Shown: piece after piece, positions 3,393 through 48,737 of the stretch
How the letters are laid out: every line of letters starts with the position of its first letter
Position numbering within the stretch: the first letter of the stretch is position 1
Assembly: GCA_043801585.1 (NCBI GenBank)
Contig: JAZDLX010000007.1
Coordinates: 80,625-144,624, forward strand
Length of the DNA: 64,000 nucleotides
From: a bacterium
GTDB taxonomy: Bacteria; Electryoneota; Electryoneia; Electryoneales; Electryoneaceae
Direction of reading: 5' to 3'
Program-made: the position numbers and the translations under genes
The notes under the pieces: generated by a model
The model's input: only the letters and a program-made list of their open reading frames with translations
What the model was told of the DNA's origin: nothing
The model's database searches: none

Positions 3393-4331
3393 ATGAACTC
3401 TCTTGATGTCATGGGTGTCGGCCGCGCCGTGATCGATTACGCCGTGCTCGTACCAAAGTACCCTGTGGCTGACCAGAAGACGGAGGCGTTGGACCGTTAT
3501 TACGGCAGTGGCAGTCCGGTGCCGAACGCGCTCTGCCAATTGTCACGTTGGGGGTGGAAAACGGCACTCACAGCGGTGATTGGGGATGATCGAGAGGGGG
3601 ATGATTTCATCCGGGATCTGACTTCTTGTTCGGTTGATACGGCTTTCGTAACAAGAAGAACCGGGCAATCGACACCGCGCGCTTTTATCTGGGTGGAAGC
3701 CGGCAGTGGAAAGCGTACAATCGTTTTGGACAGGGCACTTGCGCCACTCTCAGTGGGAGACCTACCTTTCGGCAGTCTACATCCATCGCGTTTCTTGTTG
3801 GTCGATGGTTACGAAGCCAGTGCGAACCTCGCCGCGATGAAAGCAGTGCGCGAGGGGGGCGGAGAGGTGATGCTCGACGTGGGCGCTGTTCGGGAGCAGA
3901 TGGACGAACAGCTCGCGCTCTGTGACTGGATCATTACATCTCTTGCCTTCGCCAAAGAGCGGTATGGCAACCTCGATCTGTTCCAGGTTGTTCGTGAGTT
4001 GCTCGGTTTCGGCGCCAAAGGCGCGGTGGTGACCAACGGCGCGGGTGGATGTGTTGTCGCCTGGGAACAGCAGGTGGAATGGTTTCGCAGCTATCGCGTC
4101 GAGACGGTGGACACGACTGGTGCGGGCGATGTTTTTCATGCGGGGTTTCTGCACGGACTGTTGAAAGGGTGGTCGGTGCCGTCATCGGTTCGTTGGTCGT
4201 CGGCAGCGGCGGCTCTCTCGGTTACAGCTCTCGGAGGACGTGGAAAACTGCCGGATGAAGTGGAAGTGCGGGATTTACTGGTGAGGGAAGGGGAACCGTG
4301 GGACGGAAAGCCGGAAAACGAGTGGAGGTGA
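3393..4331 (+). CDS. PfkB-family carbohydrate (ribokinase-like) kinase
   Basis: PfkB signature 2 DTTGAGDVFHAGF near the C-terminus, 312 aa. Substrate unknown. Confidence 0.8.
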   Translation: MNSLDVMGVGRAVIDYAVLVPKYPVADQKTEALDRYYGSGSPVPNALCQLSRWGWKTALTAVIGDDREGDDFIRDLTSCSVDTAFVTRRTGQSTPRAFIWVEAGSGKRTIVLDRALAPLSVGDLPFGSLHPSRFLLVDGYEASANLAAMKAVREGGGEVMLDVGAVREQMDEQLALCDWIITSLAFAKERYGNLDLFQVVRELLGFGAKGAVVTNGAGGCVVAWEQQVEWFRSYRVETVDTTGAGDVFHAGFLHGLLKGWSVPSSVRWSSAAAALSVTALGGRGKLPDEVEVRDLLVREGEPWDGKPENEWR

Positions 4332-5218
4332 ACCCGGATCAAGAGGATCAGCTTGCTCTGCCGGGTTTTGAATCCACTGCCGGAATCGAAGGCAACGGGA
4401 ACGGATCGAAGAACGGGAAGTCCGAGGATGTCTCCGCCGAAATGGAGGTCCCGGAGGAACTGGCGATCGAGCTCCACACCCGCACCTTTTACAAAGGCAA
4501 GCAGCACAAAGGCCGCTGGCACGATACAGTGTTCGCCGGTGACAACATGCACGTGTTGGAGAGCATGCCCGACGAGACTGTGGATCTGATCCTGACCGAT
4601 CCACCCTACAATATCAATTACCGTTCCAACCGGCGTGTTAAAAAGGCGAAGTTCAAACATATCGAAAACGACAATCACGGCGATTGGATCCCCGAATTCG
4701 CCCGTGAGGCCTATCGGGTACTCAAGGACAACCGGCACCTCTATTGTTTCTGCCGTCACGACACCTACCCGGAGTTCATCAAGGCGCTGCAGGATACCGG
4801 TTTCAAGATCAAGCGAACCCTGATCTGGGTCAAGAACAACCACGGAAGTGGCGATCTGAAAGGAGATTACGCCCCCCAGGACGAGTGGATCATCTATTGC
4901 CACAAGGGACGACGTGAACTTTTCGGGAAACGCCATTCGAACGTTCTCGTCTTTTCCCGTCTGAACAGCGACAAGCTGTTGCATTCAACGGAGAAACCGG
5001 TTGAGTTGCTGAAATTCCTCATCGAAAAATCGACGAAGAAGGGTGAACTTGTCCTCGATCCATTTGCGGGCTCGGGATCGACAATGCACGCCGCGAAGGA
5101 GTTGGAACGGTTCTACTGCATCGTGGAGCTTTCGGACGCCTATTACCTGACGAGTGAGATGCGACGAGGGGAACTTGATCAGATAACGCTTGAGGATCAA
5201 CTGTACAAGGATCTCTGA
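4298..5218 (+). CDS. Beta-class DNA methyltransferase (N6-adenine or N4-cytosine type), orphan
   Basis: Motif IV TDPPYN precedes motif I DPFAGSGST (beta-class order), and HSTEKP is present. The GTG at 4298 overlaps the PfkB 3' end by 34 nt; an alternative ATG lies at 4442. The stop overlaps the next start (TGATG at 5216-5220). No restriction endonuclease gene is adjacent. Confidence 0.8.
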   Translation: MGRKAGKRVEVNPDQEDQLALPGFESTAGIEGNGNGSKNGKSEDVSAEMEVPEELAIELHTRTFYKGKQHKGRWHDTVFAGDNMHVLESMPDETVDLILTDPPYNINYRSNRRVKKAKFKHIENDNHGDWIPEFAREAYRVLKDNRHLYCFCRHDTYPEFIKALQDTGFKIKRTLIWVKNNHGSGDLKGDYAPQDEWIIYCHKGRRELFGKRHSNVLVFSRLNSDKLLHSTEKPVELLKFLIEKSTKKGELVLDPFAGSGSTMHAAKELERFYCIVELSDAYYLTSEMRRGELDQITLEDQLYKDL

Positions 5219-8200
5219 TGAACAGTGAAGGTGAACTGGTCGTAACAGGAAGCTGGGTAAAATCCCAGCCTTTCTCGTTATGGCTGTTATGGATTGCACT
5301 GTTCCTCCCCGGTGTTGTCCGCGCGGCGTCCCTCTGGGAGCAACGGGTTGATTATCGGATGGATGTTTATCTGAACGACGAATCACGATCGCTCGACGCA
5401 ACGGTCACAATTACCTACATGAACAATTCTCCTGATACTCTGGATGCGATCTGGTTCCGTCTTCCTCCCGCGGCGCTTCGCGATGACTCTCCTGAGGAGA
5501 ATACCCTTTATCGTGGAGCTGCACATCGGTTAAGGATCGTACCGAAGGAAGAGTGGGGGAACCTGGTCGTTCATGGTGCAACCTGTCAGACACGCCAGGT
5601 GCGGTTCGAACAGGACGGAAGCATCGGCAGGTTGATTGTATCGCCGGCCATCCAACCGGGCGATTCCCTCGAATTTCAGCTCGACTTCACGACTCTGTTT
5701 CCCACCGGAGAAGCTCAATCCAGGATCGGGTACAGCCGTGGACAGTACAAGGGCGCCTACTGGTATCCGATGATCTGTCCCTACACCTCGCTGTATGGCT
5801 GGACGGTGAACCGATACTTCGGGACAGCGGAGGCCTACGGAGAATTCGGCGATTACACCATCCGTTATCATGTCCCCAACCGCTTTATCGTTGCCTCTAC
5901 CGGTGAGCTGGTCAACGAGTCGGATGTCCTGCCTCCAGAGCGATTGGCGGGACTGGCATTCGACAATCCCACTCCGATCCCGATTCCCGGAGGCGAGGAA
6001 GGCGAAAAAGAGGCCGTCTGGGAGTACCATGCGCACCTGGTGACCGAGGTCGCCTTCGCGATGACCCCGGATTTTCTCATTGATCGCAAGGATTTTGGCC
6101 ATTTCGAGGCGTGGGCCTTCGTGCGCCGAGGGCGTCAACAAAAATGGCCAGATGCCACCAGCATCCTGGGGTGGACGATCCTCCAGTTGGAACAGATCTA
6201 TGGACCTTACCCGTGGCCGAGGGTGATGATGACCGACTCCTGGTCCGGCATGGAATACCCCATGCTGACCATGATGAGCAGTGAATCACCCCGTTACCAT
6301 TATTTCCTGATGCATGAGGTCATCCACAATTATACCCCGATGATCATCCACTCCAACCCCGTCGACGCGCAGGTGCTGGATGAGGGATTCACGACTTTCG
6401 TTGAGCACAGTCTCGCGGTTCGCTACTCCGGGACTGCATGGAACAAGCTGACCGATGTGAGACGGGGACCGTTTCAACAGGAAATCACCCTGCGTGATGA
6501 TTGGGAGCGAGGGTTAAGACCTTATTTCGAAGCAGTCCTCGCCGGAGAGGACCTGCCGATGGTACGCGGGGCGGATGTGGCGGAGGATTACCCTCTGTTG
6601 CGTGCCTCGACGTATTACAAGACTCCCGTGATGCTGAACGCGCTCCGGTATGTCATCGGTGAGCAGGATTTCTGGGCGGGGATGAAGGAATATTACCGCA
6701 GGGGAGCCTTTCATCATATAGACGAAACGGATGTCGTCGAAGCGTTCAGCACCGCCGCGGGCCGGCCGCTCGGGTGGTTTTTCAAACCGTTCCTGTATGG
6801 AACGGGTGATATCGATTATCGAGTCGGGGGATTCTACAAGCATCGCAGTGGTTCCGAGTGGCAGATAGAGTTCAGCGTGAAGCGTCCGGGTGACATTCGG
6901 CTTCCCGTAAGGTTGGGTGTGGTGACCTCCCTGGGGGACACCCTGCGCGGCGAAATCGCGTTTCTCGATACGGATCCTGAGTTGCCGGGGTACGAGCGGT
7001 GGGGTACTTGGGATCAGCTTCACGAACCGGATGATTCCAGGATATTCCACATTACGCTGTCCACGGAGGCCACGCCAGTTGAACTGATGCTCGATCCTGA
7101 TCACCTTCTGGCGGACCGCAACCCTCTGAACAATTCCACCCGTTCTCACTTCTCCGACCGATTTGACGTCGGGATTCTCCCTGTCGCCCCGGACGTGCTC
7201 GATCGATCCACCATTCGGTTTCGACCGGCCATCGGTTATGCGGAAGAGACGGGAGCTCTGGTAGGTGTCAACGCCAGTCATGGTTGGATGAACACGGTCT
7301 CACGGTTTCAGATGCAGGCGTTCTGGAGAACATATCCGCCGGGAGACGGTAATCAGGTGCGACTCGGTTTTTCCAACCCGATTCCACCGGGAAATGGTCC
7401 CATCCGGGGATCGGTCTATGCGGGCAACGTATTCGACGAAACCTGGTACGAAGGCGGTGTCGAGGCAAAATGGCGGTTGTGGCGGCCGGAACGGACCAGT
7501 TTCCGTGCCCAGCTTCGGATGGGGTATTGGGAAGGTGATGTCTGGATGAGATCCCGTCCCAGTGCATCCTACCTGACGATGATGCTGGAGAAGAAGTGGG
7601 AGGAGATACAGGGTCACAGCGGCTCCACCAACGTCTGGATGGCCACAGGACTGCAAACGGAGGGATGGTTCTCCCTCGATGCATCGCACCAGACGAACTA
7701 CGATCTCTCCGCCTGCGCCTATCTGCCCGTTCTCCGCTGGTTCAGGCATTTTCACCTTGAGGTGTCGGAGAGGTATGTAGGGCAAACAGGGGGAGTCCCC
7801 TCGCTGTTTCTTGCGACACCAACGTTTGGAATGCGCTACCAGGTGCTCGGTTCGCCGATCGCAGGCGCTCCCTGGTCGGCGCTTGCAGGTCCTTACGTGG
7901 ATCGCCCTGCACTCATCCCAGGCATGGACTTTGTCCCGTTGCGGGATTTCGTTTCGCTGGGTACGCGGTTGGATTGGACACCTTATTCCCTTTTTGGTCC
8001 CCAAACGGACACGTTTATCAGCCGTTTTTGCGAGCATCTCCATTTCGGGGCGAGGGGCAGCGGGTTGACCCGCAGTCTTAAATTCACCTCGCAGGAGATC
8101 GCGTATAGCGCGGGGATCGATGCACAGCTTGTTGACCTGTATGGTGTTACGTTAACAGCGGCGTTGCCATTTGTCGTAAAGAATCCAGGCGAAGTTCATG

Positions 8201-8286
8201 CAGACTATGATGGGTTGCGGTCCTTGACCTGGAGACGTGATGTCAAATTCATGATTTCCCTGGATCCTGATCTTTTCGTTCGTTGA
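5218..8286 (+). CDS. Secreted M1-family (gluzincin) metallopeptidase-like protein with a ~400-aa beta-rich C-terminal extension
   Basis: N-terminal signal-like hydrophobic segment. Zinc motif HEVIH-x18-E (FLMHEVIHNY...VLDEGFTTFVEH), 1022 aa. Translationally coupled to the methyltransferase gene. Confidence 0.6.
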   Translation: MNSEGELVVTGSWVKSQPFSLWLLWIALFLPGVVRAASLWEQRVDYRMDVYLNDESRSLDATVTITYMNNSPDTLDAIWFRLPPAALRDDSPEENTLYRGAAHRLRIVPKEEWGNLVVHGATCQTRQVRFEQDGSIGRLIVSPAIQPGDSLEFQLDFTTLFPTGEAQSRIGYSRGQYKGAYWYPMICPYTSLYGWTVNRYFGTAEAYGEFGDYTIRYHVPNRFIVASTGELVNESDVLPPERLAGLAFDNPTPIPIPGGEEGEKEAVWEYHAHLVTEVAFAMTPDFLIDRKDFGHFEAWAFVRRGRQQKWPDATSILGWTILQLEQIYGPYPWPRVMMTDSWSGMEYPMLTMMSSESPRYHYFLMHEVIHNYTPMIIHSNPVDAQVLDEGFTTFVEHSLAVRYSGTAWNKLTDVRRGPFQQEITLRDDWERGLRPYFEAVLAGEDLPMVRGADVAEDYPLLRASTYYKTPVMLNALRYVIGEQDFWAGMKEYYRRGAFHHIDETDVVEAFSTAAGRPLGWFFKPFLYGTGDIDYRVGGFYKHRSGSEWQIEFSVKRPGDIRLPVRLGVVTSLGDTLRGEIAFLDTDPELPGYERWGTWDQLHEPDDSRIFHITLSTEATPVELMLDPDHLLADRNPLNNSTRSHFSDRFDVGILPVAPDVLDRSTIRFRPAIGYAEETGALVGVNASHGWMNTVSRFQMQAFWRTYPPGDGNQVRLGFSNPIPPGNGPIRGSVYAGNVFDETWYEGGVEAKWRLWRPERTSFRAQLRMGYWEGDVWMRSRPSASYLTMMLEKKWEEIQGHSGSTNVWMATGLQTEGWFSLDASHQTNYDLSACAYLPVLRWFRHFHLEVSERYVGQTGGVPSLFLATPTFGMRYQVLGSPIAGAPWSALAGPYVDRPALIPGMDFVPLRDFVSLGTRLDWTPYSLFGPQTDTFISRFCEHLHFGARGSGLTRSLKFTSQEIAYSAGIDAQLVDLYGVTLTAALPFVVKNPGEVHADYDGLRSLTWRRDVKFMISLDPDLFVR

Positions 8287-9722
8287 AGGAAATGATGCTT
8301 TCAGCAAAAACATTGCACAATCCACCTCGTCTCCATTTCAGCGGCATCGGGGGCACCGCGATGGTCGCCGGTGCGCGCCTTGCACTCGAAGTGGGATGGG
8401 AGGTTCGCGGCAGCGACAATCCACTCTATCCACCGACTTCGGAGATGGTGCGGGAACTGGGTGTCCAGGTTTATGAAGGCTACGCGGCTGAAAATCTTGC
8501 CTGGCAACCCGATCTTGTCCTCGTCGGAAACGCCCTGAGCAGAGGGAATCCGGAAGTTGAGGAGATGCTGCGTCAACGGATTCCCTACGCCAGCCTTCCG
8601 GAATGGTTGAAGAGCGAAGTGCTGCAAACGAGACGGCCGGTGGTAATCGCCGGGACGCACGGGAAGACCACGACCACCGCTCTGACAGCTTTCCTGCTCG
8701 ATCGTTGCGGATTGAACCCCGGATTTCTCATCGGTGGCCAACCTCTTGACTTTCCGTATTCGAGCAGATTGGGGCAGGAAGGAGGACCGTTTGTCATTGA
8801 GGGAGACGAATACGATACCGCCTTTTTTGACAAGCGAGCGAAATTCTTTCATTACATCCCCGAAATCGCGGTTGTCACCTCCATCGAGTACGACCATGGC
8901 GACATCTACCGGGACGTCGAGGAGATCGAGCGTGCCTTTTGCCTGATGCTCCGTCAGGTTCCACCGGGAGGTTGGTTGATCGCCTGTGCGGACGATCTCC
9001 GCTCCCTATCGCTGACCAAGGACGCCCCGTGCAGGGTGGTGACCTATGGTTTTTCCGAGAATGCCCATTGGCGCGGTGAAGAGATGGGGATCTCGTCGGG
9101 ATTCAGCGGGCTCGCCGTATATCGTGGGGAGAAACGATTCGCGGAACTCGCCGTTCCGCTCTTTGGCCACCATAACCTTCGAAACACTCTTGCGGCGGTG
9201 GCCGTCGCCGCGACTCTTGGGGCGACGAGCAGTGAAATCCAGACAGCGTTAATGGAATTTCGGGGGGTGCGAAGGAGGATGGAAGTCTTCCTGAATGCGG
9301 GGCAGAGGGTGTTTGTGGACGATTTTGCCCATCATCCGACCGCAATCCGTGAAACGATCGCAGCGGCACGGTTGCGCTGGCCTGATCACAAACTTCGAGT
9401 TCTGGTTGAACCTCGATCCAACACGATGGTCCGGAAGATCCATGAGAAGGACCTGGCTGAGGCGCTCGGGGGTGCGGATGAGGTTGTTTTCGGGCCGATT
9501 TATCGTGCTGAACGGATTCCCGGACCGGAACGGCTGGACCGCGAAAAAATACTGTCAGAATTGAAGAAACATGGCATTTCAGGTTTTTTCACGGATTCCG
9601 TGCCTCAGATCACGAAATACCTTATCGATGTTGATGAAACGCGGACAATTGATCTGATACTGTCGAACGGATCGTTCGGCGGGTTGTACGAAGCCCTTCG
9701 AGACGCGTTTGGATCGGGGTAA
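8283..9722 (+). CDS. mpl: Mur ligase: UDP-N-acetylmuramate:L-alanyl-gamma-D-glutamyl-meso-diaminopimelate ligase (Mpl)-like
   Basis: N-terminal HFSGIGGTAM and P-loop GTHGKTTTT. YPPTSEMVRELGVQVYEGY...LVLVGNALSRGNPEVEEML resembles Mpl more than MurC. ATGA overlap with the upstream gene. Confidence 0.75.
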   Translation: MKEMMLSAKTLHNPPRLHFSGIGGTAMVAGARLALEVGWEVRGSDNPLYPPTSEMVRELGVQVYEGYAAENLAWQPDLVLVGNALSRGNPEVEEMLRQRIPYASLPEWLKSEVLQTRRPVVIAGTHGKTTTTALTAFLLDRCGLNPGFLIGGQPLDFPYSSRLGQEGGPFVIEGDEYDTAFFDKRAKFFHYIPEIAVVTSIEYDHGDIYRDVEEIERAFCLMLRQVPPGGWLIACADDLRSLSLTKDAPCRVVTYGFSENAHWRGEEMGISSGFSGLAVYRGEKRFAELAVPLFGHHNLRNTLAAVAVAATLGATSSEIQTALMEFRGVRRRMEVFLNAGQRVFVDDFAHHPTAIRETIAAARLRWPDHKLRVLVEPRSNTMVRKIHEKDLAEALGGADEVVFGPIYRAERIPGPERLDREKILSELKKHGISGFFTDSVPQITKYLIDVDETRTIDLILSNGSFGGLYEALRDAFGSG

Positions 9723-9790
9723 CAGGGAGAATCGATCTGGACTATATTGACTTTCAGTTGAAGGTTTTTAAGAGTCAGACTTGAAATTCC

Positions 9791-9882
9791 GGGAGCGGAT
9801 GTGATCCTGGTGGACGCCGCGGCCTTCAAAGCCGTTGTGGGACCTGACCGTCCCGGCTCGGTTCGATTCCGAGACGTTCCCG
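9791..9882 (+). tRNA. selC: tRNA-Sec-like candidate (anticodon UCA, long variable arm); D-arm non-canonical by hand fold
   Basis: T-arm CTCGG/TTCGATT/CCGAG at 9857-9873. Anticodon stem GCGGC/GCCGT with loop CTTCAAA, anticodon TCA at 9826-9828. Variable-arm hairpin GGGAC-ctgacc-GTCCC. 7-bp acceptor GGGAGCG/CGTTCCC and discriminator G. A 6-bp D-stem could not be built. Confidence 0.4.
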
Positions 9883-9921
9883 CTACCCGAGCAGCGCTGA
9901 ACGGGATGGGCTGCGACAGGG

Positions 9922-10713
9922 ATGACCGGAGACAGGTGGATGGGGCTTCGCAACGCATGCAGGGTCACCTTCCGGAATGCGGAAGGCAGCGAGCTGTGCG
10001 GCCACATCGAACGCCCGCAGGACCGTGAACCGTATGCATGGGCGATTTTCGCACACTGTTTCACCTGCAACAAAAACTACAAAGCACCCGTCTTCATCAG
10101 CAGGTATCTGGCGGATGCGGGAATCGCAACCCTTCGCTTCGATTTTCCGGGGTTGGGCGGGTCGTCCGGAGATTTTGCGGACACGACTCTTTCCGGATAC
10201 GTTCGGGATGTTGTCTCTGCAGCATCTTTTCTGACGCAGCATTTTCGCTCTCCCCGCGTCCTCATCGGTCATTCCATGGGAGGCGCGTCGGTGTTGCTCG
10301 CTGGATCGCAGATCAGCGGCGTCGAATTGATCGCAACCGTTGGCGCTCCCTCGAAACCCGGGCAACTTGGAAAAAACCTGCAGGTCGCCAGGGAACAGGC
10401 CGTGGAAAGAGGCATCGGTGAATTGCTTGTGAACGGCCGGACGTATCGGCTTCGCAGGGATTTTTTCGATGACCTGGAGCGGCACGACCTGCATAAGGGA
10501 CTTGACGCTCTGCGCTCGAAATTGCTGATTGTGCATAGTCCCAGCGACGACATCGTACCCTATGAAAATGCGAAGCGTTTGATGGAGTGGGCGCACGCGC
10601 CGAAATATCTGCTCACACTCGATTCGGAAGCAGACCATTTGTTGAGTCGGGAGCAGGACGCCTATCAGGTGGCTCACGCTATCGTGATCCGTGTCCGGAA
10701 GGGTGTTCACTAG
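9922..10713 (+). CDS. Alpha/beta-fold hydrolase (Ser-Asp-His triad)
   Basis: Nucleophile elbow GHSMGG, acid SDDIV and His in ADHLL. The start could alternatively be the ATG at 9940. Confidence 0.7.
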   Translation: MTGDRWMGLRNACRVTFRNAEGSELCGHIERPQDREPYAWAIFAHCFTCNKNYKAPVFISRYLADAGIATLRFDFPGLGGSSGDFADTTLSGYVRDVVSAASFLTQHFRSPRVLIGHSMGGASVLLAGSQISGVELIATVGAPSKPGQLGKNLQVAREQAVERGIGELLVNGRTYRLRRDFFDDLERHDLHKGLDALRSKLLIVHSPSDDIVPYENAKRLMEWAHAPKYLLTLDSEADHLLSREQDAYQVAHAIVIRVRKGVH

Positions 10714-12090: not shown

Positions 12091-12312
12091 ACTTTGCTCC
12101 ATTAAATGCCATATTATACAATTAAATAGGAATAATTATAAGACGAAGAGGAGTGACTCGGCGAGTACTCTTGTAGAGTCCCGGACAGGGAGCGAAAGCT
12201 GGGTGAAGATCGTACCTTTGACCGCTCTCGTCAGATCGATTTGACGGGCGGACGGGACACAAAACAGAATCTGCAGGGCCGACCAGGCTAACATTGATGC
12301 ATAAGGTGTACC

Positions 12313-12714
12313 ATGGCCAAGAAAGACGGAATGCGCCGTTATTCGACAAAGGATCTGCCGCATTTCCGGAAGATCATCGAACAGAAGCGTGAAGCGGTTC
12401 AACGGGAGCTCGGATACCTCGAGGAGAATTCGTTGAAAACTCTCGAGGAATACTCCGGTGATTCCTCGACCTATTCGCTGCACATGGCGGATCAGGGCAC
12501 GGATGCGCAGGAGCGGGAGAAGGCATTCCTCTTTGCTTCGCGCGAGAACAAGTTCCTCGGTCATTTGAATCGAGCGCTGGAACGCATGGAAAGCGGCGTT
12601 TACGGAATGTGTGCAGAATGCGGTCAGCCGATTCATTACAAGCGGCTCGAGGCCGTGCCACACGCCACACTCTGCATCGATTGCAAGAAGAAGCAGGAAG
12701 AGGAACGGCGTTGA
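12313..12714 (+). CDS. DksA/TraR-family C4-type zinc-finger protein
   Basis: C-terminal CxxC-x17-CxxC (CAECGQPI...CIDCKKK); 133 aa. Confidence 0.75.
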   Translation: MAKKDGMRRYSTKDLPHFRKIIEQKREAVQRELGYLEENSLKTLEEYSGDSSTYSLHMADQGTDAQEREKAFLFASRENKFLGHLNRALERMESGVYGMCAECGQPIHYKRLEAVPHATLCIDCKKKQEEERR

Positions 12715-12738
12715 ATCCCGGCCGACGGAAGAGGTCGG

Positions 12739-13503
12739 ATGGGAGAGAGCCTGACATCGTCTGAACCAATTGATTTAAACCCTCTCCTGTATTCTGCCTC
12801 TCCGCCGATGTTGTTCAAGCGGTACCGTCCCTTGAAAAGTCCTTCACCCGCCCAATCCATCATCCGGAGACCGGCCGTGACCCGAACCGTTCGACACTAC
12901 CTGCCACTGACACTCACGCTGCTGGTCATCTTTCTGGATCGGCTGACGAAAGTGATCGTGTCGCACTCGATGAAACTGCGTGAGTCGATCCCTTTTCTTG
13001 GGGATACGGTTCGATGGACGTACATCCACAACGATGGAATGGCGCTGGGGATCAACCTGATCAATACGCGCACTCTGGGCATCCTTTCGCTGCTTGCCGT
13101 CATTATCGTGACGTGGGTGTTCATCCGTGTCAGTGACGATCCGAAGGGAATTCGTTGGATTCTGGCTGCGATTCTCGGTGGCGCGGTGGGCAATACCTAT
13201 GACAGGTTGGTGCATGGATACGTCATCGACTTCGTCGATGTAGACCTGCCGAATTTTCTCATGGAACGTTTTGCGGTTTTCAACGTTGCGGATTCTGCGG
13301 TATCCGTAGGAGTAACGGTGCTGATCCTGATGCTGTTCCTTCAGAAACAGCATGAAAAGCCGTTACAAATACCCGAGCTGGATACTCCATCGATGAACGC
13401 TCCCTCCACGAAAGAAACTCCCATACCTTCCAATGAATCCATATCCGGCGGGACTGAAACGCCGGGCGGATCCGATGCAGCGAAGGAAACGGAGGAGGCA
13501 TGA
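12739..13503 (+). CDS. lspA: Lipoprotein signal peptidase (signal peptidase II) with extended N- and C-terminal tails
   Basis: FNVADSAVSVG motif, NDGMALGI, four TM segments. The start is uncertain (alternative ATG at 12808). The C-terminal ~60 aa are rich in P/S/T/E. Confidence 0.8.
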   Translation: MGESLTSSEPIDLNPLLYSASPPMLFKRYRPLKSPSPAQSIIRRPAVTRTVRHYLPLTLTLLVIFLDRLTKVIVSHSMKLRESIPFLGDTVRWTYIHNDGMALGINLINTRTLGILSLLAVIIVTWVFIRVSDDPKGIRWILAAILGGAVGNTYDRLVHGYVIDFVDVDLPNFLMERFAVFNVADSAVSVGVTVLILMLFLQKQHEKPLQIPELDTPSMNAPSTKETPIPSNESISGGTETPGGSDAAKETEEA

Positions 13504-14270
13504 AACGTCTGACGCTCGCATGCGTGCTCCTTTTCACCCTTGTCGCAGGATCATCTGCGCAGACCTTCCCGAAGCCCCAGGGTTTTGTCAACGATTATGC
13601 CGGTGTGATGTCCTCAGGCGACCGCCAGCGACTCGAGTCGTTGGGACGGGAAATCCAGCAGAAAGCTGACATTGAATTTGCTTTCGTGACCATCGATACC
13701 ATCCCCGAGGGCGAGGACATTTCTCTTTATACCGTTGAGTTGGGGCATGCCTGGGGGGTTGGGAAGAAGGGGGCTGACCGCGGCGCAGTACTCCTGTACA
13801 AAACGGGACGGAGCGATGGGAGCGGCCGTCAGGTGTACCTGGCGACGGGGTACGGACTTGAGGGTCAGGTTCCCGACGGCGTTGCGGGACGAATTCTGGA
13901 CCAGGTGACGATTCCCTATCTGAGTCAAGAGAAAATCCTCGAGGGATTTGCCGCTACTGCTGTCGCAGTCGTGCAACGTGTGGAGCCCAAAGTCCGGCTG
14001 ACAGGCGAGATGTCACGCCAGGTGCAGTGGGATAATAAGGGTCGGGAGATGAGCCCCATCGGCATCATCTTCATGATCATCCTGTTCATCGTCCTGATGT
14101 CTTCCCGCACCGGCCGTGCAATTCTTTTCGGTATGTTGCTCAGCTCGATGTTCGGTCGCCGCGGTGGGGGTTGGGGTGGCGGCGGATTTGGCGGCGGTGG
14201 ATTTGGCGGAGGATTCGGTGGTTTCGGTGGTGGCGGTTTCGGTGGTGGCGGCGCCGGCCGTTCCTTCTAA
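13500..14270 (+). CDS. TPM-domain (TLP18.3/Psb32/MOLO-1, YgcG-like) protein with TM anchor and Gly/Phe-rich tail
   Basis: Signal peptide, TPM-like core (GFVNDYAGVMS...AFVTIDT), one TM helix, and a C-terminal GGGWGGGGFGGGGFGGGFGGFGGGGFGGGG tail. Confidence 0.7.
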   Translation: MKRLTLACVLLFTLVAGSSAQTFPKPQGFVNDYAGVMSSGDRQRLESLGREIQQKADIEFAFVTIDTIPEGEDISLYTVELGHAWGVGKKGADRGAVLLYKTGRSDGSGRQVYLATGYGLEGQVPDGVAGRILDQVTIPYLSQEKILEGFAATAVAVVQRVEPKVRLTGEMSRQVQWDNKGREMSPIGIIFMIILFIVLMSSRTGRAILFGMLLSSMFGRRGGGWGGGGFGGGGFGGGFGGFGGGGFGGGGAGRSF

Positions 14271-14283
14271 TACGGAGTCAGAG

Positions 14284-15000
14284 ATGGACCAGAGAATCAA
14301 GGGCGCAGTCGAATCGAGCGTCGAGCTTTGGAAGCGTGTGTGGGGTGACTCTTTGCAGTCAATCCATCTTTACGGTTCTGCTGCTAGGGGCGATTGGTCT
14401 GCGAAGACAAGCGACGTCAACCTCCTGCTCCTTGTCGAGAGCGGTGACTACAGCCAGTGGCCGAATGCGGCAGATGTGGTCAAGAGGAAAACGAAAAAGG
14501 GATTCGCGGTTCCGCTGATTCTTTCGGAGAATTACGTGCGCTCGTCGCTTGACGTCTATCCCATGGAATTTCTGGACATCAAGCTGTTTCATGAAACGCT
14601 CCATGGGAGCGACTTCTTTGACGAGGTGACGATTCGTCCCGAGCATCTGCGGTTGCAGGCGGAGCGGGAGGTCAAGGGCAAGTGGGTTCAACTGCGCCAG
14701 GCAGCCCTCGAACGTGGAAGCAGCACAACGGCGATTCGCGAACTGCTGGCGATGAGCTCGGCGACGTGGAGCGCTGTTTTCCAGGCGCTCCTGGTGATCG
14801 AAGGGAAGGACGTTCCGCCCGACCGCAAGGAAGTCATCCGGCAGGGGGCGGCCTTGGCGAACGTGGATCCGGACGTTTTTCTGAGAGTGCACGCAGTTCG
14901 TCATGAACGCAGAGCGATGAACCGGCTTGGCGCCTGGGATTTGCTCATGAAGACGTTGAAACAACTTGATCATCTGGCTCGGTTCGTCGATGCGTGGTAG
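14284..15000 (+). CDS. Pol-beta-superfamily nucleotidyltransferase domain protein (two-domain, KNTase-like)
   Basis: YGSAARGDWSAKTSDVNLLLLV matches the hG[GS]x9-13 DxD NTase motif, but the second acidic residue is Asn. ATG at 14284 with RBS GGAG. The 14116 start in the track is an out-of-frame overlap artefact. Confidence 0.6.
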   Translation: MDQRIKGAVESSVELWKRVWGDSLQSIHLYGSAARGDWSAKTSDVNLLLLVESGDYSQWPNAADVVKRKTKKGFAVPLILSENYVRSSLDVYPMEFLDIKLFHETLHGSDFFDEVTIRPEHLRLQAEREVKGKWVQLRQAALERGSSTTAIRELLAMSSATWSAVFQALLVIEGKDVPPDRKEVIRQGAALANVDPDVFLRVHAVRHERRAMNRLGAWDLLMKTLKQLDHLARFVDAW

Positions 15001-15041: not shown

Positions 15042-15066
15042 TGTCCGCGCAGGGCGGACACTTTTG
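15042..15066 (+). terminator. Intrinsic terminator after the nucleotidyltransferase gene
   Basis: Stem TGTCCGC/GCGGACA with loop GCAGG, followed by CTTTTG. Confidence 0.5.
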
Positions 15067-15081
15067 TGCAAGGAGGTATCC

Positions 15082-15657
15082 GTGAAACGTGGAACGGTCA
15101 CGATCCTGATCGTCGTCGGAGTACTGGTTGTCGTTGGATTTTCCATTTTCTCGTTTGTCCGGGGTACATACAACTCGCTCGTCAACATGGAAGAAACGGT
15201 CAATGGCTCATGGGCGGAGGTTGAAAACAACCTTCAGCGGAGATATGACCTGATTCCGAATCTCGTGAACACGGTCAAAGGGTACGCCAAGCAGGAACAG
15301 CAGGTGCTGCTGGGAGTCACCGAAGCGCGTGCAAAGGTCGGCGGCGCCACAAACCAGGGGCAGCGGATGGAGGCGGAGAACGAACTTTCCGGCGCTCTTT
15401 CCAGGATGCTGCTGGTCGTAGAGAATTACCCGCAACTGAAATCCGATGCCAATTTCCGCCAGCTTCAGGACGAGCTCGCGGGAACGGAAAATCGCCTGGC
15501 TGTTGCCCGGAAACGGTACAACGATTCGGTGAAGAACTATAACGTGATGCTGCGGAGTTTCCCGCAGAATATCATCGCGGGCATGTTCGGCTTCGTGAAA
15601 AAGGAATTCTTCCAGGCACCTGCAGCATCGCAGGGAACGCCAGAGGTGCAGTTCTGA
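15082..15657 (+). CDS. lemA: LemA-family membrane protein
   Basis: N-terminal TM, then LemA core (YNSLV...[13 protein letters not shown]...YNDSVKNYN). GTG start at 15082 with RBS AGGAGG 6 nt upstream. Confidence 0.8.
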
Positions 15658-16445
15658 TGATTCCACCCCCCGGACAAACCGGGGTTGTTGCGTTGGTAAC
15701 GGATTTCGGCATGCAGGACGACTACGTTGGTCAGATGCATGCCGCAATTCTGTCAGTGAACCCGGAACTGCGGATTATCGATCTTTGTCATTTTGTTCCG
15801 GCTGGGAACGTCCGGCCCGGAGCGTTCCTTCTCTATCACGATCTCGGGATCCTGCCAGAAGGATCGGCTGTCGGGGCTGTTGTCGATCCCGGGGTCGGGA
15901 GCAGGCGGGCTCTTCTGGCTGCGGAGATCGAGAACCGGTATCTCGTGGCTCCGGATAACGGATTGATCGCACCGCTGCTGGACCGCGATCATCACGCCCG
16001 TGTGTATCGCCTGGAAAATCGTGAGTGGGTGCGATCGCAACCGTCCTCGACGTTTCACGGCCGTGACATCATCGGACCCGCTGCGGCGATGCTCGCCTCG
16101 GGACACAACGTCGAGGATGCGGGACCTCCGGTGCAGCATTGGGCGTCAATAGCGATTCATCCTGTGGAACAGGAGGATGGTTTCGCGGGTGAAGTGATGT
16201 GGGTTGACAGATTTGGAAATCTGATCACCAATCTGACGGCGGATCAGGCCGAGGGTCTGACGTTGTGGATTGATGGACGGCCAATCAGGCGGGTTTCCAC
16301 CTTTGTCGACGCTGATTCTGAAGAAATTGTCTACCTGATTGGCAGCAGAAACACTGTCGAAATCGTCCGCAACGGCGATTCGGCTGCTGAGGCTCTTGGT
16401 CTTGGACTGGGGGCGGTTGTTCGGCTCGTCAGGGAACCCGTATGA
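15657..16445 (+). CDS. SAM hydroxide adenosyltransferase family protein (DUF62; fluorinase/chlorinase-like fold)
   Basis: VALVTDFG, VVDPGVG, LVAPDNGL and DRFGNLITN motifs typical of DUF62/SalL-like proteins. Start codon overlaps the lemA stop. Confidence 0.75.
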   Translation: MIPPPGQTGVVALVTDFGMQDDYVGQMHAAILSVNPELRIIDLCHFVPAGNVRPGAFLLYHDLGILPEGSAVGAVVDPGVGSRRALLAAEIENRYLVAPDNGLIAPLLDRDHHARVYRLENREWVRSQPSSTFHGRDIIGPAAAMLASGHNVEDAGPPVQHWASIAIHPVEQEDGFAGEVMWVDRFGNLITNLTADQAEGLTLWIDGRPIRRVSTFVDADSEEIVYLIGSRNTVEIVRNGDSAAEALGLGLGAVVRLVREPV

Positions 16446-33883: not shown

Positions 33884-36192
33884 TGCAGATGCACGGCACC
33901 GATCCTCTGAAGGGTCTCAACGAGGCACAGCGACAGGCAGTGGAAGCAACCGAGGGGCCGGTACTCGTCCTCGCCGGAGCGGGGAGCGGTAAAACCCGTG
34001 TCCTCGCGCATCGCATTGCACATATCGTTCAGCAGGGCAAAGCGAAACCGTGGCAGGTACTCGCTGTCACCTTTACCAACAAAGCTGCCCAGGAATTAAG
34101 GGAACGGGTCGCACGGATCACACCGGGTGGTGATGAGGTCGCGGCGGGGACGTTCCACGCGACGATGCTCAGGGTGCTTCGCCGGGAGGCGGACGCCATC
34201 GGTTTTCCCAAGGATTTCACCATCTTCGACACGGACGACAGCCGCAGGTTGATCAAGATCATCCTCAACGAATATGGGGAAGATCGGTTCCGCTCGCGCA
34301 CGATCCACACGATCATCAGCCGGGCAAAGAACGACCTGATCGACCCGGATGCCTACGAGTCCACCGCCACGATGCCAATCGAAAAACTGGCGGCGAAGGT
34401 CTATCACGAATACCAGCGCCGGATCAAACTTCACGCGGCGATGGATTTTGACGACTTGCTGATCCGTCCGCTTGAGCTTTTCCGCAGCAACCCCACAGTC
34501 CTGCTGAAATGGTCGCAACGCTGGCGTTACCTGCATGTGGATGAATACCAGGACACGAATCTCGCACAATTTGAGCTGCTGAGAGTTCTCGCAGGACCGA
34601 AGCCCAACCTGTTCGCCGTGGGTGATGACGACCAGTCGATCTACGGGTGGCGCGGCGCCCGTGTCGAGAACATTTTCCGTTTTCGTGATGCTTTCCCCGG
34701 CTCACAGGTTTTCCGCCTGGAACAGAACTACCGCAGCACCCAGAAAATCCTTGACCTCGCTCACGCTGTCGTCTCAAGGAGCGTTCGCCGCGAGGAGAAA
34801 AAACTGTGGACGGAGAAACAGGGTGGATCGACCCCGAAAATCGTCGGAGTGCCCTCGGATCAGGACGAAGCCCGCGAAATCGCCGACCTGATTGGAAGGG
34901 AGGTCCTCGCCGGTAGTCGGGCGTTCAAGGATTTCGCCGTGCTCTACCGGACAAATGCTCAATCCCGCCTGTTGGAAGACGTTTTCCGGGGTCGGCGATA
35001 CCCATTTCAGGTCGTCGGAGCGGTCAGTTTCTACGAGCGGAAAGAAGTTCGCGATGCGCTCGCCTATTTCAAGCTGTGCCTGAATGAACGTGATGACCTG
35101 TCGTTACGAAGGATCATCTCGGAGCCGCCACGCGGCATCGGGGCGAACACTCTCGAGAAGTTGATCCATTGGGCAAAGGAGCATGACGCACCTTTGATGA
35201 GAGCGCTGGCGGACGTCGGAAAGATCGACGGTGTTGCGAAACGTTCGGCTGCTGCGTGTGTGAAATTCTCGAAGCAGCTCGTGCAATGGAAGAGCGAGCT
35301 GGAAAATCTTCCGCTCGAACAGTGGGCTTCGCACGTGCTGGAGGAATCGGGATACCTGCCACGGCTGCGTGAGGAGAAGAGTTTTGAATCGCAGGGACGG
35401 ATCGACAACCTCGAAGCATTCGTCGATTCATTGGCTGAGTTCGCATCGGATGGTGGATCTCTCGGCGAATACATCGAGCAGGCGGCATTGGCAACCGACC
35501 AGGACAAGTACGATCCGGGGTCGGACACGATCCGCCTGATGACGGTACACGCGGCAAAGGGGTTGGAATTTCCGGTTGTCATCGTCTCCGGGCTTGAGAG
35601 CACTCTGTTCCCGTTGGCGGGCGAAGACCGTGAGACCGACACGGACGAGGAGCGCAGGCTTTTTTATGTCGCCGTGACACGGGCGCGCGAAGACCTGGTT
35701 CTCACCTACGCGAATCTGCGACGGGTGTGGGGACAGATGGACACCCGTGAACCGAGTATCTTTCTTCGTGAGATTCCCGAAGAGGCAGTCAACTGGAAAA
35801 CCCGTGGCGTAGCGATGCTTGATACATCGGTGGCGGGTTCACGCAGACGTTCCGGACGCAGTTCCGATGATCCGTCTTCCCGTTCGATTCACGGTGAAAG
35901 AAGTGGTGAGTACGATCCGTGGGCGGCTCGGCGAAAGAACCGTTCAGCGGTGGATGCGGAGGATGAGTCCGGATCGTCAACGACCCGCTCGCCGGCTCCC
36001 ATGCAGGATGAGGATGTTCCTGCCGTGCGCGTCGGAGACCTTGTAGAACATCCTACCTTTGGGCAGGGAATCGTTCTGGCAACATCGAAGTGGCGAAACG
36101 ATATCAAAGTCCAAGTGGAATTCGAAGGGCGCGGTGTGATGTCGCTGATGCAGCGCATCGCCCGGCTCCACCCGGTGAGGGATTTTCGATGA
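33883..36192 (+). CDS. pcrA: ATP-dependent DNA helicase PcrA/UvrD (superfamily 1A)
   Basis: Walker A AGAGSGKT, motifs TFTNKAA, VDEYQDTN and the helicase C-terminal set; 769 aa. Confidence 0.9.
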   Translation: MQMHGTDPLKGLNEAQRQAVEATEGPVLVLAGAGSGKTRVLAHRIAHIVQQGKAKPWQVLAVTFTNKAAQELRERVARITPGGDEVAAGTFHATMLRVLRREADAIGFPKDFTIFDTDDSRRLIKIILNEYGEDRFRSRTIHTIISRAKNDLIDPDAYESTATMPIEKLAAKVYHEYQRRIKLHAAMDFDDLLIRPLELFRSNPTVLLKWSQRWRYLHVDEYQDTNLAQFELLRVLAGPKPNLFAVGDDDQSIYGWRGARVENIFRFRDAFPGSQVFRLEQNYRSTQKILDLAHAVVSRSVRREEKKLWTEKQGGSTPKIVGVPSDQDEAREIADLIGREVLAGSRAFKDFAVLYRTNAQSRLLEDVFRGRRYPFQVVGAVSFYERKEVRDALAYFKLCLNERDDLSLRRIISEPPRGIGANTLEKLIHWAKEHDAPLMRALADVGKIDGVAKRSAAACVKFSKQLVQWKSELENLPLEQWASHVLEESGYLPRLREEKSFESQGRIDNLEAFVDSLAEFASDGGSLGEYIEQAALATDQDKYDPGSDTIRLMTVHAAKGLEFPVVIVSGLESTLFPLAGEDRETDTDEERRLFYVAVTRAREDLVLTYANLRRVWGQMDTREPSIFLREIPEEAVNWKTRGVAMLDTSVAGSRRRSGRSSDDPSSRSIHGERSGEYDPWAARRKNRSAVDAEDESGSSTTRSPAPMQDEDVPAVRVGDLVEHPTFGQGIVLATSKWRNDIKVQVEFEGRGVMSLMQRIARLHPVRDFR

Positions 36193-39100
36193 GATGGATC
36201 GTGCGGCTAATGGGAGTTGTGTCGTTTCTTCTCCTCGCTGAACTTCTGTTTCCCGTCGGGGTATTTGCCCAGACTGGACGGGAATCGGATTTCCTTTACG
36301 CCCGCCGTCTCTACGAGGATGGACTGTACGATCTCGCCGTGGAAGCCCTCGAACGCTACCTTGCGGCCGATCCGGAGAACCCCCACCAGGTTGAAGCAAA
36401 CCTGATCATCGGCGACGCCCTCTGGAAGGAGAAGAAACTCGATCTCGCACGGCAGGCGTATCAGCGTGCGGCCATGGCGGACCCCGATGATCCGCGAGGC
36501 GTTGAGGCGTTGACCAAGGTCGCGGACAGCTATCTGGCGGAGAACGACTGGCTGAAAGCCGCGCGAGCCGAGGAGAGGATCGCCGTTTTCTATCCGAATT
36601 CCCCGGCCGCTCCCGCCGCACTGACTCGCACTGCGCGAATCCTGATCGAGCACAACCAGTTCAACCAGGCGGAAGCGCCCATACAGCAGGTACTCCGCCA
36701 ATATCCGGGGTCGTCCCAGCAGCGCGAGGCCCGGCTCCTCTGGGCACGGGTTCTGGCAGACAGGGGGGAGTTGGAACAAGCCGCCGACGAGGCCGGAGCT
36801 GTGGCACGGGCGACGCGTGACGCCGACCTCGCGGTGGAGGCGTTGAGTTTTCAAGGCGAATGGTACTGGCGGCTTGGACGAGATCCTGACGCGGAAGCGG
36901 CGTGGCGAAGCATTCTCGAGGGGTATCCGCGTGCCGCAAAAAGGGCGGAAGCACTCACCCGGATGGGGCAGCAGCGATTGCGGATTGGCGATGCGAAACA
37001 GGCGGAACCGCTTCTCCGGGACGCCCTCGGCGGCATCCAGAAAGATTCATTGCTGGAACACGAGGCGCGGCTGACGCTCGCCGACGCCCTGTTGCTTGAG
37101 GGGAAACCGGTCGAAGCGCTGCTGCATCTGAACCGCCTCGAAGGAACGGTCACGCCGTCAATCTCCTTTCGGAAAGCGCTCGTCCTCGAGGATGCCGGAC
37201 GTAATGCGGAAGCCATCAGCCTCTATCGGAACCTGGGACAGGGAACCGATTCACTTGCTGCCGGGGCGCGCTGGAGAGTCGCGGCGATGCTGGAGAAATC
37301 GGGACGTCCCCGCGAAGCGGCGGAAGCATGGCGCTGGGCCGAGCAGGCGCTTCCTTCCGACCTGCAAAAATCGGAGGCGAGGTACCGCGCTCTCGCTTTG
37401 ACGGTGGCTATCGAACCGCTCCGGGCGTTGGAGGTAGCGTCCGTGTTCGCGGATGATTATCCCCGCTCGGCACGTGTCGATGATGCTGAATTCATCCGGG
37501 CGAAGGCATTGCTTGCCCTTGGGCGGCGCAAGGAGGCGGTGGAGGCGTTTCGCGGGCTTGGAGAAATCTGGCCGGTGAGTCCCTACCACTACGACGCAAC
37601 TTCACGGGCGGATTACATCGAGACGATGGTGCTCCCCAAGGGCGATCCATCCTCGAAACTCGCGGGTTTGCTGGCGGAGTTTGCCGGGGGACGAGATCGC
37701 CGGGATCTCTCCCTGAGACTTGCGGAAGTCTACCTCTTTGAGCTGAAGGATTACTCGGCTGCAAAAAAGCAACTGCAAGAGTTGCTGGCGGATTCGAGTG
37801 TGGATCAGGCTCGGCGATTGCAGGCTCGTGAACTGCTCGCCGAATCCCTGTGGCGCAATTTCCAACGGGAAACGCGAGGGGAGGATGGCACCCTTCTTCC
37901 AGATGTCGCCGCCCGTCGTGCCGCGGCGAATCGGACGATAACCGACCTGCAGCAATTGCTCCCGAATCTGAGAAACGAGAATCTTCGGGCGGAAACATCC
38001 TGGCGGTTGATGAATCTCGAAGCGGATTCACGCAGCGGCCTTGACAGCCTCCTCTACGTGCGCAAGATGCTCCAGAACCATCTTGCAGATTATCCGAATT
38101 CTTCCCATGCTGGCGATGCCTATCTCGATCTCGGAAAGGCGTTTTCAAGGGTGGCTAAAGGAATCGACAACCCTGACAAAGGCGATCCATCCATCTGGTA
38201 CCTTGAAGCCTTCCGGGACAACTACAGTTCACATCCCCGCTTTGCGGAGGGACTGCTTCTGCTTGCGGACCGGTATGCGAAAGCAAAACGGTTTGCGCCG
38301 GCCGAGCAGACGTATCGAAGCATTCTTCGCCTCGCTCCATCACCGGAACGGGTCGAGGCGGTTCTCGCACTGCTCAATCCGGAAAAGAGCAAATCGTCCA
38401 TGGGAATGGGGGAGGAGCTGGAGTGGGTGCGGACTCACGCCTGGTATCACCCCGATGTTCAGTTGGGCCGCCGTCTGCTGGTTCAGCGTTTGATGGACGA
38501 TGGCCACTATCACGAAGCTTCCGATGAGCTGGTGGCCTTGGGCGAGTTGAACATGGATTGGGGAGCGGGTCTGGTGATCGAGGGGGCTCGCAATCAGCAG
38601 TTGGCGTGGTACTGGGGTCAGGTGTACGAAGGATTGCATCAACCGGAAAAGGCTCGCGACGAGTATCGCCGCTACCTTTCACGGAATCCCAGCGGACCGG
38701 ACGCCGATCAGATACGTCTGAAACTGGCGGAACTGAGGAAGCGTCAGGGCTATCCCGACGCGGCGCTTCGGCTCTACCGCCGTCTGCTTGCCGATGCGTC
38801 CGATTACCGGATGCGGGAGGCGGGGCTTCGTGGGGTGGCAAACATTCTGTTCGACCAGGGGCAGTACGAAGCCGCAATGAGAAACGCCGAGGAGATCGTC
38901 CAGACAAAAGGTACAGCGAGAGATACCGCCTTCGTTTACGACGAGATGGCTGTCATTTGCCGTTATCGCCAGGGACACCTGGATGAAGCGCGCAAGCAGG
39001 CCAACGCCTTCCGCAAGAAGTGGTCACGGATGGATGGACTTTACGACGTCTCCGCACGGTTCGAGCTGGAACGCGGAAAGTGGCTCTCCAAGGACAAGAA

Positions 39101-39884
39101 CTATCCGGAAGCCGAGCGGAACTACAACCGGATCTTGAAGAATTACAACAACAGCAAATGGGTGCCCTACGCGAAGTACGAGCTGGGCCGTGATCTCCTT
39201 GAACAGAACCGGACCGATGATGGAATGAAACTGCTTGCAGAACTTCCGCCTCGTTATCCCAGGCATCCGATTCTTGGGAGGGTGTGGTGGATCCTGGGAA
39301 ATCAATACGCTCAATCCGGAGACATCATGCACGCGGTTCAGACGTACGACAAGGTGCTGACGGATAGTGCCTATGTGGACGTCTGGCCTTACGTCCTGGT
39401 CAATCAGATCCAGGCCTATCAGAACGCCGGATTCTACGCCGGAGCGTTGCAGGCGGCACAACGGTACCTCGAACTGTATCCCGAGGCTCCCGACGCGTTC
39501 GATCGCCAGATGGATGTCGGTGTGATGTATCTGCAGATGGGGCAGTATGACCTGGCGATATCGCAATTCAGGAAAATCCAACCGCTGGCGGATGTGGAGG
39601 ATGAAGCCGCCATCCAGTTCTACGTCGGTGAGTCGCTGGAAAAATCCGGACGACTTGCCGAGTCCGTGATTGAATACAAGAAGGTCGATTACCTCGGAAA
39701 ACGGACGAAAATGGAGTGGGCGATCACGGCGCTGTACAACGCCGGACGAGTGCTCGAACGGTTGGGTCAGACCGATCAGGCATTGAACATGTACCAGGAA
39801 ATTGTCCGTCGGGAGGGACTGGCAAGCCCCTTTGGACGGAAAGCCCAGGAACAGGTGGATCGTTTGCGTGCGAGCAAAAGGTAA
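36189..39884 (+). CDS. Large secreted tetratricopeptide-repeat (TPR) protein
   Basis: ATG 36189 overlaps the pcrA stop (ATGA). Signal peptide MRWIVRLMGVVSFLLLAELLFPVGVFAQ. 1231 aa of degenerate TPR-like helical repeats. Confidence 0.7.
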   Translation: MRWIVRLMGVVSFLLLAELLFPVGVFAQTGRESDFLYARRLYEDGLYDLAVEALERYLAADPENPHQVEANLIIGDALWKEKKLDLARQAYQRAAMADPDDPRGVEALTKVADSYLAENDWLKAARAEERIAVFYPNSPAAPAALTRTARILIEHNQFNQAEAPIQQVLRQYPGSSQQREARLLWARVLADRGELEQAADEAGAVARATRDADLAVEALSFQGEWYWRLGRDPDAEAAWRSILEGYPRAAKRAEALTRMGQQRLRIGDAKQAEPLLRDALGGIQKDSLLEHEARLTLADALLLEGKPVEALLHLNRLEGTVTPSISFRKALVLEDAGRNAEAISLYRNLGQGTDSLAAGARWRVAAMLEKSGRPREAAEAWRWAEQALPSDLQKSEARYRALALTVAIEPLRALEVASVFADDYPRSARVDDAEFIRAKALLALGRRKEAVEAFRGLGEIWPVSPYHYDATSRADYIETMVLPKGDPSSKLAGLLAEFAGGRDRRDLSLRLAEVYLFELKDYSAAKKQLQELLADSSVDQARRLQARELLAESLWRNFQRETRGEDGTLLPDVAARRAAANRTITDLQQLLPNLRNENLRAETSWRLMNLEADSRSGLDSLLYVRKMLQNHLADYPNSSHAGDAYLDLGKAFSRVAKGIDNPDKGDPSIWYLEAFRDNYSSHPRFAEGLLLLADRYAKAKRFAPAEQTYRSILRLAPSPERVEAVLALLNPEKSKSSMGMGEELEWVRTHAWYHPDVQLGRRLLVQRLMDDGHYHEASDELVALGELNMDWGAGLVIEGARNQQLAWYWGQVYEGLHQPEKARDEYRRYLSRNPSGPDADQIRLKLAELRKRQGYPDAALRLYRRLLADASDYRMREAGLRGVANILFDQGQYEAAMRNAEEIVQTKGTARDTAFVYDEMAVICRYRQGHLDEARKQANAFRKKWSRMDGLYDVSARFELERGKWLSKDKNYPEAERNYNRILKNYNNSKWVPYAKYELGRDLLEQNRTDDGMKLLAELPPRYPRHPILGRVWWILGNQYAQSGDIMHAVQTYDKVLTDSAYVDVWPYVLVNQIQAYQNAGFYAGALQAAQRYLELYPEAPDAFDRQMDVGVMYLQMGQYDLAISQFRKIQPLADVEDEAAIQFYVGESLEKSGRLAESVIEYKKVDYLGKRTKMEWAITALYNAGRVLERLGQTDQALNMYQEIVRREGLASPFGRKAQEQVDRLRASKR

Positions 39885-48306: not shown

Positions 48307-48381
<75 letters not shown>

Positions 48382-48482
48382 CGGTGGGGAGTCTCGAGAA
48401 GCGGCGGTCTGGCGGTCTTGCGCGAGACACCTCGAGAACCTACTTTACGCGGGCTTGCGAAGTGACGCAGGCGCAGCGGTTT

Positions 48483-48557
48483 GGGGCAGTAGCTCAGTTT
48501 GGTTAGAGTGCCGGCCTGTCACGCCGGAGGTCGCGGGTTCGACCCCCGTCTGCCCCG
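48483..48557 (+). tRNA. tRNA-Asp (anticodon GTC)
   Basis: Acceptor GGGGCAG/CTGCCCC, anticodon stem CCGGC/GCCGG with loop CTGTCAC, T-loop TTCGACC, discriminator G. Confidence 0.9.
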
Positions 48558-48570
48558 CAAAATCATTAGC

Positions 48571-48727: not shown

Positions 48728-48737
48728 GACACCTCTT

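Follow-up and report, generated by a model that had tools for sequence, protein, structure and literature searches.

A complete tRNA-Sec gene (selC) lies on the forward strand at positions 9791–9882 of the window, the 64-kb (64,000-nucleotide) stretch of bacterial DNA analyzed here, and measures 92 nt including the discriminator base G73. The gene upstream on the same strand is mpl, encoding UDP-N-acetylmuramate:tripeptide ligase (8283–9722; TIGR01081, E = 6.9e-109), and the gene downstream encodes an alpha/beta-hydrolase (9922–10713, forward strand), which is also the downstream neighbor in most related copies. Ahead of mpl, and forming with it a block at 5218–9722, is a gene for a large protein of ~1,000 aa whose function is unknown and in which only a weak aminopeptidase-N-like stretch was seen. 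A DNA adenine/N4-type methyltransferase gene occupies 4298–5218 on the forward strand with no restriction enzyme evident alongside, and a methyltransferase is likewise found upstream of the large protein in one related contig (L082).

The tRNA gene was called by ARAGORN as tRNA-SeC with anticodon tca at 9791–9883, and by the Rfam tRNA-Sec model, RF01852, with a score of 64.5 bits (gathering score 47; E = 7.7e-11), the match running from 9791 to 9881 in the window and over model positions 1–91 of 91. In the clan competition of the Rfam search of the window, RF01852 outscored the general tRNA model. A preliminary description of this DNA had read the locus as selC from its UCA anticodon and had proposed running ARAGORN and RF01852 on it; both detect tRNA-Sec, and covariation in nine syntenic copies supports the same reading. 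The acceptor stem, discriminator G, anticodon loop, extra arm and T-arm that it listed are all present where it placed them. Its wording of a "hidden" tRNA went too far, since this is a routine gene that every standard annotation pipeline or tRNA finder would report. The fallback it offered, a divergent selC, is not supported, as the curated Rfam threshold was exceeded by 17 bits, indicating that the gene is not especially divergent.

The minimum free energy (MFE) fold of the single sequence is a cloverleaf with a long extra arm. The folding-energy z-score is only −1.4, with 20 of 200 shuffled sequences folding equally well, so that thermodynamics alone would not convince, and the evidence lies in the pattern of the structure rather than in its stability. 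The gene is complete and carries all the hallmarks of its family in sequence and structure. Judged from sequence, 9791–9882 is very probably (roughly 90%) a functional selC encoding a bacterial-type tRNA-Sec.

Architecture of the tRNA and its departures from the textbook form

Read from 5′ to 3′, with the bulged nucleotide in brackets, the layout of the tRNA is GGGAGCGG-AU-GUG[A]UCC-UGGU-GGACGC-CGCGGC-CUUCAAA-GCCGUU-G-UGGGAC-CUGACC-GUCCCG-G-CUCGG-UUCGAUU-CCGAG-ACGUUCCC-G. The 5′ strand of the acceptor stem (GGGAGCGG, 9791–9798) pairs with the 3′ strand (ACGTTCCC, 9874–9881) through seven standard pairs, GGGAGCG/CGTTCCC at 9791–9797 and 9875–9881, followed by an eighth layer, G9798·A9874 (alignment columns 8:85), that is G·A in all five distinct sequences recovered; the discriminator G stands at 9882. 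The eight nucleotides between the T-stem and G73 give the spacing of the 8/5 class (PMC5330540). The T-arm (9857–9873) has a 5-bp stem, CUCGG/CCGAG, and the loop UUCGAUU in both the Rfam alignment and the MFE fold, and the acceptor and T helices together thus have 8 + 5 spacing, with 13 layers of which 12 are standard pairs and one is the G·A layer.

The D-arm (9801–9817) consists of a 6-bp stem, GUG[A]UCC/GGACGC, formed by 9801–9807 with 9812–9817, and a 4-nt loop, UGGU, with A9804 bulged between the third and fourth pairs. This fold was agreed on by the Rfam alignment, the single-sequence fold and RNAalifold applied to nine sequences, and the bulged A is conserved across the copies. The preliminary description had been able to pair only 3 bp here and had entered this as a caveat; RNAalifold and covariation instead support six pairs around the bulge. 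The anticodon arm (9818–9836), invariant in all copies, has a C·U apposition at its top and five pairs, GCGGC/GCCGU (GCGGC/GCCGT in the DNA), closing the loop CUUCAAA (CTTCAAA, 9824–9830), in which the anticodon TCA occupies 9826–9828; this loop is kept in nine copies. The extra (variable) arm (9838–9855) has a 6-bp stem, UGGGAC/GUCCCG, and a 6-nt loop, CUGACC, in both the MFE fold and the RNAalifold structure.

The tRNA therefore has each of the features by which a tRNA-Sec is recognized: UCA in a 7-nt loop, 8/5 spacing, a D-stem of 6 bp closing a 4-nt loop, and a long extra arm with G73. The UCA within a CUUCAAA loop, the 8/5 helix, the D-arm, the long extra arm, G73 and the UUCGAUU-type T-loop are all shared with bacterial tRNA-Sec (RF01852), of which E. 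coli selC is the type. A D-arm with 6 bp in its stem and 4 nt in its loop is a signature of tRNA-Sec (PMC5330540). Compared with the E. coli-type gene, the window tRNA differs in the bulged A of its D-stem, in the C·U top of its anticodon stem and in having no similarity at the BLAST level; a BLAST search of E. coli genomes with the window tRNA came back without a match, which is unsurprising because the 93-nt tRNA has diverged. The last acceptor layer also differs, being C7:G66 in E. coli selC (PMC6267555) and G·A in the window tRNA.

Three departures from the textbook form, the G·A eighth acceptor layer, the C·U topping the anticodon stem and the bulged D-stem A, are thus invariant in all copies. 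Published surveys contain comparable cases, as bulges and imperfect 13-bp helices occur in genuine tRNA-Sec of genomes with selA, selB and selD, the tRNA-Sec of Clostridiales has a bulged D-stem nucleotide at position 13a, and 7/5 (12-bp) variants are found in Cloacimonetes, Epsilonproteobacteria and others (PMC5330540). The window tRNA differs from the Clostridiales bulge and from the 7/5 variants in that its bulge lies between D-stem pairs 3 and 4 and in that 8 nt precede G73. Because these 8 nt are kept between the T-stem and G73, the tRNA belongs to the 13-layer spacing class rather than to the 7/5 variants, and it is best described as 8/5 in its spacing but non-standard in its closing layer, unlike the 7/5 class of tRNA-Sec.

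The 3′-terminal CCA is not encoded, GCTA coming directly after G73, and the CCA must therefore be added after transcription. Its absence sets the window gene apart from the usual bacterial selC, and about 7% of bacterial tRNA-Sec genes are without an encoded CCA (PMC5330540). The oddities of this selC have either published precedents, as with the bulged D-stem and the missing CCA, or, in the case of the G·A layer, a known functional position, and the gene stays within the tRNA-Sec family in spite of them.

Conservation and covariation in related loci

Scanning genomes with the Mpl protein yielded 80 loci. Three of these have an ARAGORN call of tRNA-SeC just 3′ of mpl, namely L001, L002 and L012 (the last from Candidatus Electryonea clarkiae). 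A metagenome scan with a lineage-specific pattern added six contigs, five of which carry a whole selC; in the remaining contig, L081, the tRNA breaks off at position 46. A covariance model based on the nine full copies was searched against the other 77 mpl loci and found no further selC copy or remnant there, the sole other match being a tRNA-Ser(GCT) in L025 at 41 bits, compared with 104–114 bits for the Sec copies.

When the copies were aligned on the explicit 8/5 structure, 93.5% of the cells formed standard pairs, compared with 37–48% when the 3′ pairing partners were slid by one to three columns. Changes on both sides were seen in five pairs, a covariation that rests on few sequences, the nine full syntenic copies comprising five distinct sequences of three types. 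One of these pairs lies in the acceptor stem (columns 6:87; C-G, U-A or U-G), one in the D-stem (12:26, in the middle of its outer half; C-G, U-A or U-G in relatives, with 100% of cells pairing), one in the extra arm (53:62; A-U, G-C or G-U across relatives), and two in the T-stem (70:82 and 72:80), where the changes are fully compensated. An uncompensated D-arm across orthologous loci, which the preliminary description had said would speak against selC, is not what was found, since pair 12:26 covaries instead. The observed covariation score was reached by none of 500 shuffles, and RNAalifold recovered the same cloverleaf unaided from the nine sequences.

Conservation between the window and its relatives ends sharply at the edges of the tRNA. 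The window tRNA is 99% identical to that of L001, with flanks at 43% and 58%, and 84% identical to that of L002, with flanks at 39% and 18%, while the Mpl proteins of the selC-bearing loci are 59–81% identical to that of the window. The compensated changes, the diverged flanks and this level of Mpl identity indicate that the gene is not a decaying relic, and the structure of the tRNA is under purifying selection.

The gene order is shared as well. The large protein and mpl precede selC in all nine related loci compared by tblastn (L001, L002, L012 and L081–L086), and the alpha/beta-hydrolase follows in seven. The copies of the Electryonea type (L012, 5057–5151; L082, 10468–10562; L086, 7966–8060) encode the CCA that is absent from the window type, and an extra treble-clef zinc-finger gene between mpl and the Electryonea-type selC, seen in L082 and L086, is absent from the window type. 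About 70 mpl loci labeled Hydrogenedentota share mpl only and none of the neighbors of the selC locus. By gene order the window therefore groups with the lineage that includes Candidatus Electryonea (Candidatus Electryoneota, FCB group) and not with Hydrogenedentota. Since the other mpl loci differ in gene order, the absence of selC from them reflects genome organization and is not evidence of loss. Several mpl genes that cluster with the Hydrogenedentota-labeled ones, at about 60% identity to the window gene, come from bins assigned to Nitrospiraceae, Nitrospirales and even Bathyarchaeia (L005, L006, L008, L013, L017, L018 and others), and these contigs are probably mis-binned or mislabeled.

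Signals for transcription of the gene were sparse. The promoter scan returned a single, weak sigma-70-like site at 9719–9748, overlapping the end of mpl, that is not conserved in the relatives, where the upstream DNA is not conserved either, and it gave no convincing promoter; the terminator scan found no terminator after selC. The tRNA might be transcribed from a promoter of its own or be processed out of a transcript reading through from mpl.

Gene content of the window and alternative readings of the tRNA

Searches with NCBIfam and Pfam found no selA, selB or selD and no recognizable selenoprotein family among the 48 genes of the window, and no sel or selenoprotein gene was present in the approximately 75 kb of related selC-bearing loci examined. 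A six-frame scan of the 64 kb for open stretches joined by one TGA returned only natural gene ends. selA, selB and selD are often found near selC (Secmarker paper, PMC5330540), and the window gene differs from this bacterial type in adjoining mpl and not sel genes. The gene set of the window is a housekeeping one that includes PBP1, mpl, yggS, divIVA, lspA, pgi, purF and cysS as well as RND efflux genes, pcrA, nadC, glycogen enzymes, folD and purL.

Several other features of the window were recorded in the course of this survey. The otherwise unannotated 648-bp gap at 12091–12738 holds a DksA/TraR C4 zinc-finger gene (12313–12714, forward strand) with its own stop, a TGA lying 24 nt ahead of, and in frame with, the lspA reading frame (12739–13503, forward strand). 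The LspA profile match starts only at residue 58 of that reading frame, and the true lspA start is therefore probably further downstream. Beyond it, two reading frames overlap (13500–14270 and 14116–15000, forward strand), with a short tandem GGCGG-rich repeat at 14171–14208 and a weak nucleotidyltransferase match in the second, followed at 15064–16445 (forward strand) by a LemA/MamQ-like gene and then a member of the (R)-S-adenosylmethionine hydrolase/fluorinase family. A TPR-repeat protein of 1,264 aa (36090–39884, forward strand), unusually long for its family, matches Tol-Pal YbgF/CpoB in its N-terminal part. A tRNA-Val(TAC) and tRNA-Asp(GTC) pair with strong Rfam and ARAGORN calls lies at 48308–48382 and 48483–48558 (forward strand), followed by a 122-aa reading frame (48701–49069) with no family match.

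The least improbable alternative is an orphan or repurposed selC in a genome where SelA or SelB is absent, the tRNA being either a relic or a carrier of serine or cysteine to UGA. tRNA-Sec-like tRNAs that carry serine or cysteine to UGA have reportedly been found in some metagenomic lineages, and the lack of selenocysteine machinery and selenoprotein genes in the 64-kb window would fit such a reading, as would the bulged D-stem and the two layers, G·A and C·U, that are not standard pairs. The 64 kb probably cover little of a genome of typical bacterial size, however, so that the absence of sel genes from the window means little, and the structure has been maintained by compensated changes despite the divergence of mpl and of the flanking DNA. 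G73 and the long extra arm suit serine charging, the tRNA retains the 8-nt spacing that goes with the 13-layer class, and an orphan or repurposed gene is accordingly quite unlikely. A related thought takes the invariant G7·A66, the bulged D-stem A and the C27·U43 together as a lineage-specific architecture with a different SelA/SelB/EF-Tu discrimination, in which, for example, the purine-purine layer could be the sole EF-Tu antideterminant, or as a selC repurposed in genomes without the full selenocysteine machinery; we consider this unlikely.

Genetic codes 4 and 25 use UCA tRNAs for tryptophan or glycine, so a control for the genetic code was needed before UCA could be taken, as had been stated earlier, to be diagnostic of selC. 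UCA alone would be compatible with a sense-codon or suppressor tRNA in an organism where UGA has been reassigned to Trp (code 4) or to Gly (code 25), or with a suppressor of the allo-tRNA type, but TGA is the commonest stop in the window, ending 28 of the 48 genes (TAA ends 13 and TAG 7), and profile matches reach the C-termini of the TGA-terminated pgi, purL and cysS. UGA hence functions as an ordinary stop in this organism, the tRNA cannot then be a general UGA decoder of the code 4 or 25 kind, and the statement about UCA holds. The D-arm and the 13-layer acceptor/T helix are specific to tRNA-Sec and differ from the 7/5 shape of tRNAs for tryptophan or glycine, and the higher score of the tRNA-Sec model over the general one argues in the same direction, making a decoder of reassigned UGA very unlikely. 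Type-2 tRNA-Ser resembles the window tRNA in its long extra arm and G73, which belong to the SerRS identity set (PMC6267555), and differs in its 7/5 helix, 3–4 bp D-stem, large D-loop and serine anticodons. Allo-tRNAs resemble tRNA-Sec in shape and carry serine identity (Mukai et al. 2017, as summarized in PMC6267555). Their acceptor branch is one of 12 bp (PMC6267555), and membership of the window tRNA in this class was ruled out by its 5-bp T-stem, 8-nt acceptor strands and 13-layer spacing. The preliminary description had also suggested a 3′ tRNA fragment, of the kind left as an attachment-site scar by an integrating element. In enterobacteria selC is known as a hotspot of integration, which lends this idea some plausibility, yet the model is matched over its full length, the gene retains its five helices and its discriminator, the last 23 nt of the tRNA occur only once in the window even when three mismatches are allowed, and the gene order is kept across nine related loci. 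As the preliminary description had itself noted, no integrase is found among the 48 genes of the window. A complete tRNA with a single 3′ end and no integrase is not an attachment-site fragment, an explanation we regard as extremely unlikely, and the locus shows no integrated island. Chance resemblance in intergenic DNA could be argued from the unexceptional folding energy given above, but the covariance-model E-value, the borders of conservation falling exactly at the tRNA ends and the covarying stems leave it a negligible probability.

Proposed pathway and probable selenocysteine use

If the window gene is a functional selC, as we believe, its transcript would be charged with serine by seryl-tRNA synthetase, which recognizes the long extra arm and G73. 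The serine would then be turned into selenocysteine by SelA, whose recognition features are the 13-layer acceptor/T helix and the D-arm with its 6 bp and 4-nt loop, and the dedicated factor SelB would deliver the product to those UGA codons that have a SECIS hairpin after them. EF-Tu would be kept off the tRNA-Sec, with the consequence that ordinary UGA stops would not be read through. This pathway of charging, conversion and delivery is established (PMC6267555, PMC5330540), and for the window tRNA we infer the charging, the conversion and the dependence on SelB by analogy.

The G·A layer fits into this scheme. In E. coli tRNA-Sec the EF-Tu antideterminants are 7:66, 49:65 and 50:64 (PMC6267555), and the G·A layer of the window tRNA sits at 7:66. 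The invariant G·A would hold the helix at 13 layers for SelA and SelB, and it is reasonable to suppose, from the E. coli case, that the mismatch may also serve as an EF-Tu antideterminant.

A literature search found nothing specific on selenocysteine in Hydrogenedentota or Electryoneota. The Ace Lake paper includes Fdh (formate dehydrogenase) in the metabolic scheme of Candidatus Electryoneota and does not discuss selenocysteine. The presence of selC suggests that this uncultured bacterium probably makes selenoproteins, in which case selA, selB, selD and the selenoprotein genes themselves would lie elsewhere in the genome. The finding matters for annotation only and opens no newly testable question. 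Given selC, reading frames with an in-frame TGA elsewhere in the genome need to be checked as possible selenoproteins before they are labeled truncated, and formate dehydrogenase is the usual first candidate. With this gene, an uncultured lineage whose gene order links it to Candidatus Electryonea joins the list of probable selenocysteine users.
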